A DNA stretch of 34,699 nt from a virus: IMG/VR virus record IMGVR_UViG_3300018036_000002. One strand, 5' to 3'. Within the stretch, counting starts at the first letter, position 1. Each line of letters begins with the position of its first letter. Shown piece by piece: positions 5,416 through 9,331 of the stretch. The translations under genes and the position numbers were made by a program. The notes beneath the pieces are model-generated. The model did no database searches, was not told where the DNA came from, and saw only the letters and a program-made list of their open reading frames with translations.

Positions 5416-5452
5416 TCTAAAAGCATTACGCTCCGCTTGCGGTCCCGGAGGG

Positions 5453-5523
5453 GTACGTGTTCAGAACACGTACGTGTTAAGCATGTACGTGTTACTAAAC
5501 ACTTTCTTATTCAAAACACTTTC
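5453..5523. repeat. Iteron-like cluster: GTACGTGTT x3 and AAACACTTTC x2, giving six GTGTT/AACAC cores in 71 nt.
   Basis: GTACGTGTT occurs at 5453, 5470 and 5485. AAACACTTTC occurs at 5497 and 5514. The perfect palindrome ACGTGTTC-A-GAACACGT spans 5455-5471. No ORF overlaps. Confidence 0.8.
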
Positions 5524-5571: not shown

Positions 5572-5596
5572 AAAAAAAAGCCCGGCGAACCGGGCT
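5572..5596 (-). terminator. Rho-independent terminator ending the ribozyme-punctuated leftward operon.
   Basis: The minus strand reads AGCCCGG-ttcg-CCGGGCT followed by TTTTTTTT. On the plus strand the same hairpin lacks a U tract. Confidence 0.8.
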
Positions 5597-5617
5597 GAAG
5601 ACACACAGGGGAGTGTG

Positions 5618-5800
5618 TTAGATAGTCAGTGAGTGACGATACACGATCGCCATCACTGTTCCAAAGTGTTTTTGATTGGGTCTAACCGCACGATACCCCT
5701 GATGAGTGCGGCTAATGTGCATCACGCTCAGATGATTGCGGAGCATGATTGATTTTGCATCCGCTAGCGCATCTAGCGGATTGAGTTTGAATCCAAACAT
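5618..5800 (-). CDS. Possible small ORF (60 aa) at the 3' end of the operon. Weak call.
   Basis: AAGGA lies 6 nt upstream of the ATG. It overlaps the upstream gene by 28 nt and lacks the conserved ribozyme/leader unit. Confidence 0.3.
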   Translation of the reverse strand: MFGFKLNPLDALADAKSIMLRNHLSVMHISRTHQGYRAVRPNQKHFGTVMAIVYRHSLTI

Positions 5801-6180
5801 GGATTGTCCTTGAGCCTGTATTGGGCAAATCGTTTGCCGTTATGTTTAATCATGGTCGAGGTGATATTGTATCCCCTTCCTCTCAGATCATAAATGCGAG
5901 CAGACAATCGCATACAGCCAATTTCCATCGTGGATTCCCACTGAGTGATTGAACCATTGCGTTTCATGAATGCCAAAATAAGGTCGCATTGAGCGCCCTT
6001 GGTTTGCTCCTCGGTTGAGTCGAAGTCTTCAGACGGATCGATTGTACGAACGATCGCTGATAGTGCGGCAGGGCCGCTCTCCATTGTGCGTTCTGCGAAA
6101 TCGTCTGCCGCATTTTTGCTTTCAGCATAAAAAGTGACAGTCCCGCCGTCAGAATATTCAACGTCGATTGCGTGCTTCAT
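5773..6180 (-). CDS. Protein with a C-terminal winged-helix DNA-binding domain (phage HTH_39-like).
   Basis: CDLILAFMKRNGSITQWESTMEIGCMRLSARIYDLRGRGYNI matches the common phage wHTH pattern (...GI.RLSARI.DLR..G..I). It is preceded by the conserved leader GGGGAAAUACAAU-AUG. Confidence 0.65.
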   Translation of the reverse strand: MKHAIDVEYSDGGTVTFYAESKNAADDFAERTMESGPAALSAIVRTIDPSEDFDSTEEQTKGAQCDLILAFMKRNGSITQWESTMEIGCMRLSARIYDLRGRGYNITSTMIKHNGKRFAQYRLKDNPCLDSNSIR

Positions 6181-6200
6181 ATTGTATTTCCCCTTGATGT

Positions 6201-6262
6201 GCGACCTGTCTTATCAATACGGGTAGGTCACATCCCGTAGACCGGGCGAACCCGGTTTCGAC
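6201..6262 (-). ncRNA. Hammerhead ribozyme A (type II, U3:A8 core variant).
   Basis: RNA: GUC GAAA CCGGG-UUCG-CCCGG UC|UACGGG-AUGUGACCUA-CCCGUA UUGAUAA GAC AGGUCGC. Stem II is GAC/GUC. The tail AGGUCGC pairs with loop I GUGACCU. Predicted cleavage is after C at 6240. The G of the upstream UAG stop is part of stem II. Confidence 0.8.
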
Positions 6263-6630
6263 TATGCAAGATGGTTCAAGTGGTGACGCTTGAGCAACCC
6301 AAACAAATATTTTGTCGAGCTTTCTAGCTCATCACCAAACACTCTGAACTCTGTGTGCAGTACGCACTCTTCCATGAACATTGGGACAAAGTCACAGTCG
6401 AAGGGTTCATCATAATCAAGCTCATCCTTGACCATGTTGTAGACCTGTTCGCATGACACAGCCAACTCTGAGATCTTGTCTCTTGTATGAGCCATGCCGT
6501 GCTGTCTTCTGAACGCCTTCAAATCGTGATCGTCGTCCAATTCTTGGAAGTATTCATTGATGACCTGCGCTGTGAACAGCAGTTGGTCAGCCTGAATTCC
6601 GCATACTTTTTCATTAAGAATATTTTCCAT
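6262..6630 (-). CDS. Acidic hypothetical protein (122 aa, MENILNEKVCG...).
   Basis: The track ORF is trimmed to ATG 6630, which follows the conserved leader. The extra 10 upstream codons read through ribozyme B. Confidence 0.65.
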   Translation of the reverse strand: MENILNEKVCGIQADQLLFTAQVINEYFQELDDDHDLKAFRRQHGMAHTRDKISELAVSCEQVYNMVKDELDYDEPFDCDFVPMFMEECVLHTEFRVFGDELESSTKYLFGLLKRHHLNHLA

Positions 6631-6648
6631 TGTATTTCCCCTATGTGA

Positions 6649-6715
6649 TTGCCCTGACATCGTCAGATCGGGTAAGGCAAGGTTCCCGATGACGCACCCG
6701 GAGGTGCGTTTCGTC
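6649..6715 (-). ncRNA. Hammerhead ribozyme B (type II, extra U after A9, flipped stem II).
   Basis: RNA: GAC GAAA CGCACC-UCCG-GGUGCG UC|AUCGGG-AACCUUGCCUUA-CCCGAU CUGACGA U GUC AGGGCAA. Stem II is GUC/GAC, compensatory relative to the other copies. The tail AGGGCAA pairs with loop I UUGCCUU. Cleavage is after C at 6691. Confidence 0.75.
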
Positions 6716-7176
6716 TATGCAAAAAGCTCATCAAATTCAGCAACCTGAATTGATAGAACCGATGTGGCTTTGTTGTCGAGACCAATGATGACCTCGATCG
6801 CACGGCCTTGGTTGCTATGCCAGACAGCGGTCAGTCCGGCATCTTCAAGATCATGCACCAGTTGCTGTGCATGCATGTGCATCTGCGCTTCCCGGCGGTC
6901 ACCTTTCGGATACCACGGGAAATTAACGTAAATCTGAAAGCCGTTGGTCTCTAGATCATTCGCCAGCACACTGTCGCTCCAGTCCGCATGCGATTCAGTC
7001 CAGAAATAGCATGGTTGGTTAAGCTCCTCCATGCGGGCTTTGAACTCCTTGAGCATAGATTTGTTGAGACCTACGCGGGCAGAGACTTTACGCTTGGGCC
7101 TGCTGTCACGCATGACACTTTTGAAAGTTTCATACTGAGCCGCCTTGATACGCTGAATGATTTTCATGTGATTCAT
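6715..7176 (-). CDS. Hypothetical protein (153 aa, MNHMKIIQRIKAAQ...).
   Basis: Trimmed to ATG 7176 after the conserved leader. The longer track ORF (to 7377) reads through ribozyme C and into the next gene. Confidence 0.65.
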   Translation of the reverse strand: MNHMKIIQRIKAAQYETFKSVMRDSRPKRKVSARVGLNKSMLKEFKARMEELNQPCYFWTESHADWSDSVLANDLETNGFQIYVNFPWYPKGDRREAQMHMHAQQLVHDLEDAGLTAVWHSNQGRAIEVIIGLDNKATSVLSIQVAEFDELFA

Positions 7177-7195
7177 AATGCTTCCCCTGTGTGTG

Positions 7196-7261
7196 TCATC
7201 CTGTCTAATCATGCCGGGTAGGATGAGGTTCCCGACGACACACCCGAAGGTGTGTTTCGAC
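7196..7261 (-). ncRNA. Hammerhead ribozyme C (type II, A3:U8 core variant).
   Basis: RNA: GUC GAAA CACACC-UUCG-GGUGUG UC|GUCGGG-AACCUCAUCCUA-CCCGGC AUGAUUA GAC AGGAUGA. There is a perfect 7-bp pseudoknot (AGGAUGA/UCAUCCU). Cleavage is after C at 7237. Activity of the A3:U8 core is uncertain. Confidence 0.7.
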
Positions 7262-7501
7262 TCAAAGGCAAATGCGTATACGTTCGATGGTGTGCTTGCC
7301 GCGTACCAGCCGGTGATCGACTTTGACGCGACGGCCAACGAAGGCATGCCAGTCATGCGCTTGCACCCAATTGGCATTGCAGGGTGTGTAAAAGCACTCT
7401 GCTGTGCCGGGCTTGTTACCGATCAATAGCATCCAACGTGGGTTGCCATTACGTGTGTTCAGTTCGCGTGATACTTGCAGTACGTTTGCATGTGTTTCCA
7501 T
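7262..7501 (-). CDS. Hypothetical protein (79 aa, METHANVLQVSRELN...).
   Basis: Trimmed to ATG 7501 after the conserved leader GGGGAAAUAUC-AUG. Confidence 0.6.
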   Translation of the reverse strand: METHANVLQVSRELNTRNGNPRWMLLIGNKPGTAECFYTPCNANWVQAHDWHAFVGRRVKVDHRLVRGKHTIERIRICL

Positions 7502-7520
7502 GATATTTCCCCTGTATGTG

Positions 7521-7584
7521 CCACCCTGTCTTATCAATACAGGTAGGGTGAGATTCCTGTAGACGCCCCGGAGGGCGTTTCGAC
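7521..7584 (-). ncRNA. Hammerhead ribozyme D (type II, U3:A8 core variant).
   Basis: RNA: GUC GAAA CGCCC-UCCG-GGGCG UC|UACAGG-AAUCUCACCCUA-CCUGUA UUGAUAA GAC AGGGUGG. The tail AGGGUGG pairs with loop I UCACCCU. Cleavage is after C at 7562. Confidence 0.8.
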
Positions 7585-7931
7585 TATGCCATTTCAACCG
7601 TTTCTTCTGTCACGTACTTGCATGTGTATGTGACCTCATCGCCTTTGAATCTATCGAACACCTTGAAGTGCTTAGCGACAAATCGAAACTCGATATCTTT
7701 ACGGCCTCGATACGCATGTTCATTTTGAAACTGCCAGTTGACAGCTTTGAGATACCCAACGTCGAAATCATCGTCTGGACTCGGTTCAGCGTCGAATGTT
7801 CCACCGGGATGTGACACCCGTTGAACTTCAAGCATCGGTATCCATTGTGATGTCTTCCATTCAGACCACTTGCGGCCCTCTTTTTTGCGGTATTGACATG
7901 CATATGAATTGGCTTGGATTAGATTTTCCAT
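7584..7931 (-). CDS. Hypothetical protein (115 aa, MENLIQANSYACQYRKK...).
   Basis: Trimmed to ATG 7931 after the conserved leader. The upstream extension reads through ribozyme E. Confidence 0.65.
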   Translation of the reverse strand: MENLIQANSYACQYRKKEGRKWSEWKTSQWIPMLEVQRVSHPGGTFDAEPSPDDDFDVGYLKAVNWQFQNEHAYRGRKDIEFRFVAKHFKVFDRFKGDEVTYTCKYVTEETVEMA

Positions 7932-7950
7932 TGTATTTCCCCTGTGTTGA

Positions 7951-8013
7951 GATACCTGTCTCATCAGTGCCGGGAGGTAAACCCCGGTCAGACGGGCCGA
8001 AGCCCGTTTCGAC
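7951..8013 (-). ncRNA. Hammerhead ribozyme E (type II, canonical core).
   Basis: RNA: GUC GAAA CGGGC-UUCG-GCCCG UC|UG(A)CCGGG-GUUUACCU-CCCGGCA CUGAUGA GAC AGGUAUC. The tail AGGUA pairs with loop I UACCU. Cleavage is after C at 7991. Confidence 0.85.
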
Positions 8014-8274
8014 TTATGCAGTTGTGATGCCCTCAGCAATGTAAATTCGGTTGAGGGTAAGCACTAGATCATGCTTGGTATCAGCGCGGGCGATGACTTT
8101 GGTGAAGCCGTCCGCATTGCGTATCGATGTGTCTTTGGCAAGCCACCGACCTCCAACTTTTAAAACGGAGATGTGTTCGTTGCCTTTGACAACCCATTCT
8201 GCTGAGTCTGTTCCCATGCCGTTTCCAAGCCATTCTGTAGACTTAGTTTTGGTCAGCTTGATGTAGTTTTTCAT
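8014..8274 (-). CDS. Hypothetical protein (86 aa, MKNYIKLTKTKSTEW...).
   Basis: Trimmed to ATG 8274 after the conserved leader GGGGAAUACAAA-AUG. Confidence 0.6.
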   Translation of the reverse strand: MKNYIKLTKTKSTEWLGNGMGTDSAEWVVKGNEHISVLKVGGRWLAKDTSIRNADGFTKVIARADTKHDLVLTLNRIYIAEGITTA

Positions 8275-8292
8275 TTTGTATTCCCCTGTGTT

Positions 8293-8354
8293 TGAGATGT
8301 CTTCATCAGACCGTGGTCTCTCACACCACGATGACGGGCAAGGCCCGTTTCGAC
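8293..8354 (-). ncRNA. Hammerhead ribozyme F (type II, extra A after A9).
   Basis: RNA: GUC GAAA CGGGC-CUU-GCCCG UC|AUCGUGG-UGUGAGAGA-CCACGGU CUGAUGA A GAC A UCUCA. The tail UCUCA pairs with loop I UGAGA. Cleavage is after C at 8333. Confidence 0.75.
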
Positions 8355-8441
8355 TTAGTACCAATCGGTTGACCGTAGGACCGCCCATGCAAGGATGGTG
8401 ATGCCCCAAAGGATCAAGAAGGTTTCTTCTGCGCCAGTCAT
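8355..8441 (-). CDS. Micro-ORF: 28-aa hydrophobic peptide (MTGAEETFLILWGITILAWAVLRSTDWY).
   Basis: Found by reading the sequence. The ATG overlaps the upstream micro-ORF stop (TGATG), and the TAA stop abuts ribozyme F. Confidence 0.45.
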   Translation of the reverse strand: MTGAEETFLILWGITILAWAVLRSTDWY

Positions 8442-8515
8442 CAGATCACCTCCCAGAACTTGAGAGTGCCAAATGCGAAAGCCGCGCTAAATGAAAGAAT
8501 GATTAATAGTTCCAT
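8441..8515 (-). CDS. Micro-ORF: 24-aa hydrophobic peptide (MELLIILSFSAAFAFGTLKFWEVI).
   Basis: It is preceded by the same conserved leader as the larger ORFs (ACACAGGGGAAUACAC-AUG). It occupies a ribozyme-delimited slot between copies G and F. Confidence 0.5.
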   Translation of the reverse strand: MELLIILSFSAAFAFGTLKFWEVI

Positions 8516-8532
8516 GTGTATTCCCCTGTGTG

Positions 8533-8595
8533 TTGCCCTGTCTCATCAGTGTGGGTAGGGCGTGATCCCACAGACCGCCCGGAGGCGGTTTCGAC
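8533..8595 (-). ncRNA. Hammerhead ribozyme G (type II, canonical core).
   Basis: RNA: GUC GAAA CCGCC-UCCG-GGCGG UC|UGUGGG-AUCACGCCCUA-CCCACA CUGAUGA GAC AGGGCAA. The tail AGGGC pairs with loop I GCCCU. Cleavage is after C at 8573. Confidence 0.85.
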
Positions 8596-8958
8596 TTATG
8601 CGCTTTCAATCAGCTTTCTGATTTTCTTGATGACTTTGCGTTCTGCTTCAGCCATTTTTTTGTTGCCGTACGCGATGGCTTCTTGAGGTGTTTTAAATGA
8701 TTTGGCGCGAGGTGCTTGTCCGAATCTTTCACCGTTCCGTTCATTTCTCAGAAACACTGTAAAATCCCTTGGAACGAAATCTTCAGGTCTGACCCAACAC
8801 CGCTTTGACCATTCCGCATTCTCGTCTTTGGTGTAGTCAAACTGCCAAACCAAAAAACTGAATCCGATGACTCTGCCTTGAGCATCTCGCAATCCAAATT
8901 CTTTGCTTTCTTCAGCGACAATTTTTTCTTCACGTGAACATGTAATTAAGTTAGTCAT
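8596..8958 (-). CDS. Hypothetical protein (120 aa), first cistron of the ribozyme-punctuated operon.
   Basis: ATG 8958 follows the conserved leader ACACAGGGGAAUACACA-AUG. Confidence 0.65.
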   Translation of the reverse strand: MTNLITCSREEKIVAEESKEFGLRDAQGRVIGFSFLVWQFDYTKDENAEWSKRCWVRPEDFVPRDFTVFLRNERNGERFGQAPRAKSFKTPQEAIAYGNKKMAEAERKVIKKIRKLIESA

Positions 8959-8966
8959 TGTGTATT

Positions 8967-9031
8967 CCCCTGTGTGTTTCGCGGATACTGCCGCTCATCA
9001 GTCAGGCTGGTTGCCTGAGACACTAGGGGGG
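8967..9031 (-). ncRNA. Hammerhead ribozyme H (type III topology, canonical core). Its stem III contains the SD of the first cistron.
   Basis: RNA: CCCCCCU-A-GUGUC|UCAGGC-AACCA-GCCUGA CUGAUGA GCGG-CAGUAU-CCGC GAAA CAC-AC-AGGGG. Stems I and II are closed hairpins. Stem III is open (GUGU/ACAC plus CCCCU/AGGGG). Cleavage is after C at 9019. Confidence 0.8.
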
Positions 9032-9207
9032 AAAGTTAACTGGTTGGTGCGTGATGCGAATGCTTGAGTGAGACCTTGCTGAATCAGCGGAACCCCGAAG
9101 GCGCTGAAACCATCCGGAAACCAGAAGCACCGTCAAGGCGCAGACCAGATAACCAGTAAGCAGGTTTTTAAAGAGCTTTGAACCGGGGCCGCCGATCCGT
9201 TGAGAAC

Positions 9208-9240
9208 ATTATAATCATAGTGTGACGCATTACGTCAACA
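9208..9240 (-). promoter_or_regulatory. Candidate leftward early promoter plus palindromic operator driving the ribozyme operon.
   Basis: The minus strand reads TGTTGACGTAatgcgtcacactatgatTATAAT. The -35 TTGACG is at 9238-9233 and TATAAT is at 9213-9208, with a long 19-nt spacer. The inverted repeat TGACG-taatg-CGTCA overlaps the -35. Confidence 0.5.
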
Positions 9241-9306: not shown

Positions 9307-9331
9307 CCCCGGCGCAGACCGGGGACTTTTT
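9307..9331 (+). terminator. Rho-independent terminator-like hairpin immediately upstream of the terS SD.
   Basis: CCCCGG-cgcaga-CCGGGG followed by acTTTTT, ending 2 nt before the AGGAGA SD of the 9344 ORF. Confidence 0.6.

Follow-up and report, generated by a model that had tools for sequence, protein, structure and literature searches.

A predicted type III hammerhead ribozyme that takes up the Shine-Dalgarno sequence of the first gene of a phage operon

Copy H and the first cistron

The DNA analysed here, called the window throughout, is IMG/VR virus record IMGVR_UViG_3300018036_000002 (34,699 nt), which carries on its minus strand an operon of small genes with eight hammerhead ribozymes. 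Its large terminase shares about 57% identity with the large terminases of HTVC010P-type pelagiphages (genome size 34-36 kb), so the window is probably a near-complete marine podovirus genome. The first of the eight ribozymes, copy H (9031-8967, minus strand), was read from the sequence as a canonical type III hammerhead; its last five bases, AGGGG (8971-8967), are the Shine-Dalgarno (SD) sequence of the open reading frame (ORF) at 8958-8596, which has its start codon at 8958-8956. Copy H has the sequence 5'-UUUCCCCCCUAGUGUC^UCAGGCAACCAGCCUGA-CUGAUGA-GCGGCAGUAUCCGC-GAAA-CACACAGGGGAAUACACAAUG or, read continuously with the cut marked, 5'-UUUCCCCCCUAGUGUC^UCAGGCAACCAGCCUGACUGAUGAGCGGCAGUAUCCGCGAAACACACAGGGGAAUACACAAUG. 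Its parts are listed below.

9020-9031, minus strand: 5' strand of stem III with the anti-SD, CCCCCCUAGUGU (paired bases 9029-9025 and 9023-9020)
9018-9019, minus strand: predicted scissile bond, 3' of C17 (C9019), from the GUC triplet in canonical position
8977-9018, minus strand: hammerhead body (Rfam RF00008 alignment)
9018-9002, minus strand: stem I hairpin (9018-9013 paired with 9007-9002)
9001-8995, minus strand: core CUGAUGA
8994-8981, minus strand: stem II hairpin (8994-8991 paired with 8984-8981)
8980-8977, minus strand: GAAA, with G12A13A14 at 8980-8978
8967-8977, minus strand: 3' strand of stem III, composed of ACAC (8977-8974), AC (8973-8972) and AGGGG (8971-8967)

The 5' and 3' ends of copy H both lie in stem III, and the ribozyme was assigned to type III on this ground. 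An initial annotation of the DNA had noted the same switch to type III at the 5'-most copy, the other seven being of type II, and its description of stems I (UCAGGC/GCCUGA) and II (GCGG/CCGC) as closed hairpins was borne out by hand reading, by minimum free energy (MFE) folding and by RNAalifold, in all of which stem III is open. Proximal stem III consists of four pairs (A8977-C8974 with U9020-G9023, GUGU/ACAC) and is separated by an internal loop, with A9024 opposite A8973 and C8972, from five distal pairs (A8971-G8967 with U9025-C9029, CCCCU/AGGGG). This two-part helix, with the AGGGG strand as the SD of the first cistron, had likewise been read correctly, as had the predicted cleavage site after C9019; the distance from the SD to the start codon had been given as 10 nt, and the spacer between the last G of the SD (8967) and the AUG is 8 nt. 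All conserved elements of the catalytic core are present in copy H (C3U4G5A6N7G8A9, G12A13A14, the A15.1-U16.1 pair and the NUH triplet). The single-sequence MFE structure and the RNAalifold consensus both give the hammerhead fold with the SD within stem III, and the Rfam model Hammerhead_3 aligns to 8971-9026 with 28.4 bits (E=3e-4 in a 321-nt search, 0.011 in a 10.5-kb search). Judged from its sequence, copy H would be a functional, catalytically active hammerhead.

Relatives of the module were drawn from IMG/VR and JGI metagenome contigs, and seven distinct versions were distinguished (the window, L124, L121, L122, L123, L359 and L291/L375). The anatomy of the copy H module is conserved: the type III fold and the burial of the SD are kept in the seven distinct relatives, which form two clades. 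Their common layout has an Sf6-type small terminase gene (terS), divergently oriented, on one side of the promoter; on the other side follow the operator promoter, the conserved leader, the type III hammerhead, the SD and the type II units. The first gene varies among the relatives and the cassette genes occur in varying combinations, so that the conserved unit is the RNA module and not a gene. DNA searches of GenBank phages with the region or with the structural module gave no match, scans of representative bacterial genomes (based on terS and on leader 18-mers) found no prophage copy, a 14-mer leader scan of viral contigs returned chance matches only, and a further gapped scan for the module yielded no new members. 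Relatives of terS at 56-73% identity lack the module, and some of them have a similar operator-promoter followed directly by the SD. In L254-L257 (small terminase 69-70% identical) the promoter with palindromic operator, TTGACCAATTTGGTCA, precedes the SD with neither leader nor ribozyme between them, which argues that the ribozyme-leader module is gained or lost as a unit.

Compensatory changes occur in stem II among the relatives (GCGG/CCGC, GCGA/UCGC, GUGA/UCGC and GCCG/CGGC), and stem I shows wobble changes. In L359 the 3' strand of stem III is shorter by two lost nucleotides (AC), and the pairing persists with a 1-nt bulge. In the divergent clade (L291/L375) the stem III strands, CUUCGUGU/ACACGAGG, are unlike those of the main clade and the SD is still paired: the SD leader is ACACGAGGAACUACCUAUG, the 5' strand is CCUCCUUCGUGU, and eight contiguous pairs cover the SD. 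In the ribozyme of this clade stem I is different and stem II is 1 bp long; its loops I (UGGCG) and II (CGCCA) are complementary and can form a pseudoknot. This variant type III ribozyme lies at 11495-11440 (minus strand) of L291, is the same in L375, and has an 8-nt loop II, AACGCCAA. It aligns weakly to the Rfam type II model and looks like a type II core closed into type III topology. Hammerhead variants with a 1-bp stem II and a pseudoknot are active elsewhere (PMC3088659).

Masking of the SD before cleavage and its unmasking afterwards are predictions of thermodynamic folding models. In the window, the probability that the G-run of the SD is unpaired was 0.001 for the precursor, rising to 0.48 once the 3' product was free; across all family members the values for the SD were at most 0.012 in the precursor and 0.15-0.51 after cleavage. 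In this model, then, the SD is paired in the precursor and accessible after processing. For the seven type II units the corresponding values are already 0.17-0.60 without cleavage. The anti-SD tail of the free leader is largely unpaired (probability 0.65-0.99), so it could pair once the SD is transcribed, and the anti-SD strand CCCCCCUAGUGU occurs once in the window. The stem III duplex was calculated at -14.3 kcal/mol and its four proximal pairs by themselves at -4.3; about 3% of random upstream 11-mers taken from the window genome equal or exceed the full value. Such a duplex recurs with other sequence in the second clade (p ~0.05) and in the indel variant (p ~0.013). Taken alone, the chance estimate for stem III is suggestive and not decisive.

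Leader, type II units and the end of the operon

Upstream of copy H, the following elements were recognised in the leader.

9208-9238, minus strand: predicted sigma-70-type promoter of the ribozyme operon (promoter scan; the block is invariant in five relatives)
9180-9198, minus strand: leader hairpin around the invariant GGCGGCCCC (MFE), upstream of boxA
9166-9176, minus strand: boxA-like motif GCUCUUUAAAA, a perfect match to GYTCTTTAANA
9034-9154, minus strand: conserved leader domain of about 120 nt (alignments), with a predicted long-range closing helix of CUGGUUAUCUGGU with ACCAGUUAAC

The promoter has a -35 hexamer TTGACG (9238-9233) and a -10 region at 9216-9208, and a palindrome TGACG-N5-CGTCA (9237-9223) that overlaps the -35 hexamer is likely an operator. 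The leader had been put at about 180 nt in the initial annotation; this length rests on the predicted conserved promoter, that is, on a transcription start inferred rather than mapped. The boxA sequence, GCTCTTTAAAA (9176-9166), is the sole match to the consensus on either strand of the 34.7-kb window; the predicted start is about 25 nt before it and the SD about 200 nt beyond it. It is perfect in five of the seven distinct relatives. The consensus GYTCTTTAANA is gamma-proteobacterial (PMC5725501); reference boxA sequences are UGCUCUUUA for rrn and CGCUCUUA for lambda (PMC2724277, PMC5725501), and the boxA of the window includes the rrn core GCUCUUUA (PMC2724277). The hairpin stands directly before boxA, in the order boxB-boxA of rrn leaders. 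It bears no sequence likeness to known boxB elements, and its flanking stem covaries among the relatives (GGAUC/GGUUC, GGUCA/UGACC, GCUCA/UGAGC, UGCC/GGCG). In L291 the spacer, ACAAUUU, equals the rrn spacer.

The leader is the best-conserved part of the locus. In the RNAalifold model of the ~120-nt domain 99.7% of cells are paired, compared with 35-44% when the partners are slid, and two pairs only have changes on both sides. The MFE z-score of the leader against shuffled sequences is about 0, so stability is uninformative here, and no Rfam family matched the leader at E values up to 10, also in the 321-nt search. With its hairpin, its consensus boxA and its top conservation, the leader appears to be more than a passive carrier of the anti-SD. 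A leader peptide was considered and rejected: the frame that ends at a UAG inside the anti-SD has no conserved start, and it is frameshifted in L122, truncated in L359 and absent in L375. A cos site is also an unlikely cause of the conservation, because terS is of the Sf6 type, and phages of this type usually have their pac site within terS.

Downstream of copy H, the operon comprises the features listed next.

8596-8958, minus strand: first cistron, 120 aa (ORF list), with a 71%-identical homologue at the same place in L124
6200-8596, minus strand: seven type II units (Rfam RF02276 matches, sequence and our own scanner)
8532-8596, minus strand: type II unit G
8291-8355, minus strand: type II unit F
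7950-8014, minus strand: type II unit E
7520-7585, minus strand: type II unit D
7195-7262, minus strand: type II unit C
6648-6716, minus strand: type II unit B
about 6200-6262, minus strand: type II unit A
5572-5613, minus strand: 3' end of the operon, with a hairpin ACACA-CUCCCC-UGUGU that has an anti-SD loop (5613-5597) and an intrinsic terminator (5596-5572; terminator scan)

The first cistron matched no Pfam or PHROG family, and among the cassette proteins the only family match in these two databases was a winged-helix domain in the eighth gene. Downstream of each type II unit, which overlaps the preceding stop codon, come the shared SD leader and a small gene. The SD leader, ACACAGGGGAA, is common to all eight units, and the motif ACACAGGGGAA(U)ACA..AUG has eight matches against 0.48 expected. 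The upstream stop codon falls within the 5' strand of stem II or adjoins it (UAAGUC, UAGUC or UGAGUC, then GAAAC), as in UAAGUCGAA at 8598-8590 and UAGUCGAA at 7587-7580, and likewise in L121-L124, L291 and L061. With the stop codon in this position, a terminating ribosome would cover part of the ribozyme, and the processed mRNA would retain its stop codon and a 3' hairpin (stem III). Units A and D (core UUGAUAA) have U3-A8 in place of C3-G8, and unit C (core AUGAUUA) has A3-U8; both variants recur in relatives. The U3-A8 core is known in nature (PMC3088659), and no mention of A3-U8 was found in the same paper.

The small genes of 5618-8958 are reordered or recombined in L121, L122, L123 and L124, the first gene differing in three of the four, and the ribozyme and the constant SD leader are unchanged in these genomes where the genes vary. 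The operon looks like a cassette system bounded by ribozyme-leader units; an SD leader and ribozyme as cassette boundary would let small genes shuffle among related phages. The second 'gene' of the array (8355-8514, minus strand) consists of two tiny overlapping hydrophobic ORFs, MELLIILSFSAAFAFGTLKFWEVI and MTGAEETFLILWGITILAWAVLRSTDWY, and a similar tiny ORF comes first in L359, right after the type III unit.

At the 3' end, the hairpin carries UCCCCUGUGU, which is perfectly complementary to the shared SD leader ACACAGGGGA. The hairpin is kept in four relatives (L124, L121, L123 and L122) with UCCCC invariant, and gives a weak match to RF02278, the Betaproteobacteria toxic small RNA family (29 bits, gathering score 50), in which C-rich loops of anti-SD type occur too; the hairpin may be an anti-SD RNA derived from the 3' untranslated region (UTR). 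The initial annotation held that the identical leaders of the type II units have no partner comparable to that of the first SD. This stands for pairing in cis; the hairpin at 5613-5597 is nevertheless complementary to them, and the 5' leader, once released, could bind the other units in trans.

Two further elements flank the operon. Past its terminator lies a long imperfect palindrome (5451-5508, with AACACGUAC repeats) that is matched by microRNA models on both strands and may be an operator or origin-like element. On the plus strand, a G+C-rich hairpin with a T-run (9307-9324) directly precedes the SD of the small terminase gene and may act as an attenuator or terminator ahead of the packaging-structural operon.

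Proposed role of copy H and its alternatives

Copy H is proposed to be the processing site that parts the boxA leader from the first mRNA, cleavage unmasking the SD; we give this reading a probability of about one half. Transcription from the operator-controlled promoter would produce the hairpin and boxA first, and these would recruit NusB/NusE and their partners to RNA polymerase, by analogy with rrn and lambda nut sites. The conserved domain of about 120 nt would come next and end in the single-stranded tail CCCCCCUAGUGU. Closure of the ribozyme would await emergence of the last part of the 5' UTR (ACACACAGGGG), when the leader tail and the SD of the first gene itself would join to form stem III, the SD being captured once made. 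Because only the SD region completes stem III, the SD would be held from its synthesis until cleavage and strand separation. Self-cleavage after C9019 would sever the covalent link between leader and mRNA, and on melting of the 9-bp helix the leader would be lost along with any polymerase-bound Nus complex tethered to it. The mRNA that remains would begin with a 5'-OH and carry two protective hairpins, with its SD open; in kind, this 5' end would match those that the type II ribozymes leave on the other seven cistrons. Catalysis by copy H, the binding of Nus factors at boxA and the translational effect of cleavage are steps that we infer. A narrower form of the proposal is tentative and rather doubtful: that the hammerhead replaces host RNase III in a lambda-type processing of the nut leader-to-first-gene junction and licenses the first early gene, cleavage cutting the tether between Nus-modified polymerase and mRNA at the time that it unmasks the SD.

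Several observations weigh against the proposal. The score of copy H (28.4 bits) is below the RF00008 gathering score of 48.5, a curation cut-off that sets no structural requirement; among the type II units of the same operon, one of seven attains its own gathering threshold. The stem III strands are invariant in the main clade and give no column-by-column covariation, and the duplex is only modestly improbable by chance (p ~0.03 per clade). The boxA has two mismatches at consensus positions in L359 and L291, and was assigned from sequence alone. The 9-bp helix that, in the initial annotation, alone holds the SD after cleavage and can dissociate is predicted to be stable (about -12 kcal/mol), and release of the SD may lag behind cleavage; slow release or competing religation is possible. 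By rough estimate, this stability corresponds to a low-nanomolar dissociation constant and to release in tens of seconds to minutes, and since the cleaved helix is stable, strand release may set the delay, the rate-setting step then being strand release and not chemistry. With fast constitutive cleavage, on the other hand, masking would amount to a brief delay only. The masking could also be a side effect of a longer stem III beside a short, fixed 5' UTR.

Type III hammerheads in other phage contigs bear on the same question. They are common right before an SD and start codon in uncultivated phage contigs (L458-L577). In a survey of viral-contig hammerheads selected for GGAG near the ribozyme core, 42 distinct type III ribozymes were collected, 35 of which have a start codon 4-12 nt after the GGAG. 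The SD lies fully in stem III in four of these 35 (L548, L532, L470 and L565), partly in five and outside in 26; most type III hammerheads directly upstream of phage genes (26/35) leave the SD unmasked. An unrelated operon in L061 (3200-6700, plus strand) has a leader of about 150 nt, a type III ribozyme with a 3-bp stem III and eight type II units; its type III first unit also leaves the SD unmasked, and it has no boxA. A type III ribozyme in first place was rejected as a general rule of type II arrays, since it occurs in none of the ten other arrays with upstream sequence and is otherwise confined to L061. With the SD unmasked in 26/35 and in L061, burial of the SD is a trait of this family and not a general cause of the first-position type III ribozyme. 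From these sequences, leader trimming appears to be the common theme and SD masking an optional extra.

In one alternative account copy H is an insulator only, trimming the transcript fast and constitutively to a standard stable 5' end (5'-OH and hairpins) as RiboJ does, the SD pairing being a by-product of extending a weak 4-bp stem III into the sole stretch at hand beside a short, fixed 5' UTR and leaving protein output unaffected. The 35 of 42 surveyed ribozymes that stand directly before a phage start codon, the 26 of 35 with the SD unpaired, the unmasked first unit of L061 and the weakness of the proximal stem alone (-4.3 kcal/mol) are all in its favour, and RiboJ-type trimming in itself lifts mRNA and protein levels (PMC6206723). 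Against this, SD pairing persists despite an indel and in two clades whose sequences differ, a 5-bp G-C extension over an internal loop exceeds what stabilisation needs and slows product release, and synthetic constructs of the same geometry strongly alter expression (PMC5052635). We regard the insulator-only account as possible, with appreciably less than an even chance of being right. Inactivity or chance resemblance, in which no cleavage takes place and the helix is an ordinary SD-occluding structure of the 5' UTR, would agree with the Rfam score below the gathering threshold; it is very improbable given that all invariant core positions are present, that stem II has compensatory changes, that the motif heads seven further hammerheads and is kept in seven relatives, and that one relative is of the type with 1-bp stem II and pseudoknot, which is active elsewhere.

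The remaining two accounts turn on the leader. If the leader were itself the product, the ribozyme would serve to make the 3' end of a non-coding RNA, stable and about 180 nt long, whose single-stranded C-rich tail (CCCCCCUAGUGUC>p) pairs in trans with the ACACAGGGGAA leaders or with host SDs, jointly with the anti-SD hairpin at the operon's 3' end. The leader's rank as best-conserved part of the locus, its predicted unpaired tail, the identical target sequence in all units, the second conserved anti-SD element (5613-5597) and a type III topology that puts hardly any ribozyme sequence on the leader are consistent with such a role. One leader per eight cistrons would be a poor stoichiometry unless the leader accumulates, though, a single-stranded 3' tail is a good exonuclease substrate, and boxA and the hairpin favour a co-transcriptional over a trans-acting role, which leaves this account unlikely. 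Alternatively, the ~120-nt domain might sense a ligand, a protein, temperature or Mg2+ and gate the anti-SD tail, cleavage and translation, which would make copy H a natural allosteric hammerhead. The domain is strongly conserved, has no Rfam match and ends 2-5 nt before the anti-SD, and its substitutions fit both local and long-range pairings; yet the tail is free and the hammerhead is in the MFE structure in every model, no recognisable aptamer is present in the domain, the MFE of the leader is no better than that of shuffled controls and covariation is thin, with two pairs changed on both sides. Regulation of this kind is highly unlikely.

Comparison with known systems

Mixed-type clustered hammerheads, the type II pseudoknot and U3-A8 covariation are already known (PMC3088659). 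In that study (Perreault et al. 2011), mixed-type hammerhead arrays lie among small prophage genes, as in the window; in type II units a pseudoknot joins loop I to the 3' tail and there is covariation to a U3-A8 core, as in the array described here, and processing of polycistronic RNA was the proposed role, which the present array would share. The clustered phage hammerheads cleave in vitro and in vivo, and in the haloviruses HF1/HF2 HHphage precedes the first ORF of a polycistronic transcript by 13 nt (PMC3088659). The paper differs in that neither SD pairing nor a ribosome-binding site is mentioned (0 occurrences of either term), and its text describes no boxA leader and no rule of type III first and type II after. 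The present locus is a concrete case with such a position rule, type III at the junction of leader and first gene and type II between genes. According to a review (PMC6765202), most hammerheads of bacteria and phages still await a defined biological role. In the literature searched, which did not cover all journals, no natural hammerhead with an SD in a ribozyme helix or with boxA coupling was found; if the narrower form of the proposal is true, copy H would be the first case in nature of an SD gated by a ribozyme, and hammerheads of bacteria and phages would gain a defined function.

In T7 early mRNA, RNase III cuts the polycistron to monocistronic mRNAs that end in hairpins, and some of the cuts stimulate translation. 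That processing depends on a host enzyme and involves no SD in a ribozyme helix, unlike copy H. The lambda nutL-N leader is closer in layout. There, nutL lies about 200 nt upstream of N with a structured leader between them, N and Nus factors at nutL repress N translation, and an RNA loop to the polymerase has been proposed (PMC5725501); RNase III modulates this repression (Wilson et al. 2002, as cited in PMC5725501). The window shares this geometry, in which boxA precedes the first gene of an early operon by about 200 nt (Wilson et al. 1997, 2002, as reported in PMC5725501). The lambda leader, by the same secondary account, is structured and cleaved, with cleavage linked to translation of the first gene, and the leader of the window is conserved, probably structured, and would likewise be cut. 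The cutter in the window would be a ribozyme acting in cis, whereas that of lambda is host RNase III; the hairpin of the window precedes boxA, in the rrn order, and that of lambda follows it; and the window has no identified N-like protein, its first gene varying between relatives. If cleavage does gate translation, it would show that phages can bring an RNA-processing activity of their own instead of using host RNase III.

Synthetic devices offer the other comparison. Engineered SD-masking hammerheads and twisters control translation in E. coli over a 5- to 100-fold range, as summarised in PMC5052635. In these switches (the twister described in that paper, the hammerhead cited in it) the SD and anti-SD are placed in a helix of a 5' UTR ribozyme and cleavage frees the SD. 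With RiboJ, which lifts expression 2- to 10-fold, a type III ribozyme removes a promoter-proximal leader and leaves a hairpin-capped 5'-OH mRNA (PMC6206723), as proposed for copy H. Copy H differs from the synthetic devices in being natural, conserved in uncultivated phages and accompanied by a boxA leader and a ribozyme array. If cleavage gates translation, synthetic biologists would have independently arrived at a design whose natural original is this locus. By analogy, copy H may be regarded in function as a host-independent version of the RNase III processing of lambda nutL-N and as a natural counterpart of the synthetic SD-masking devices.

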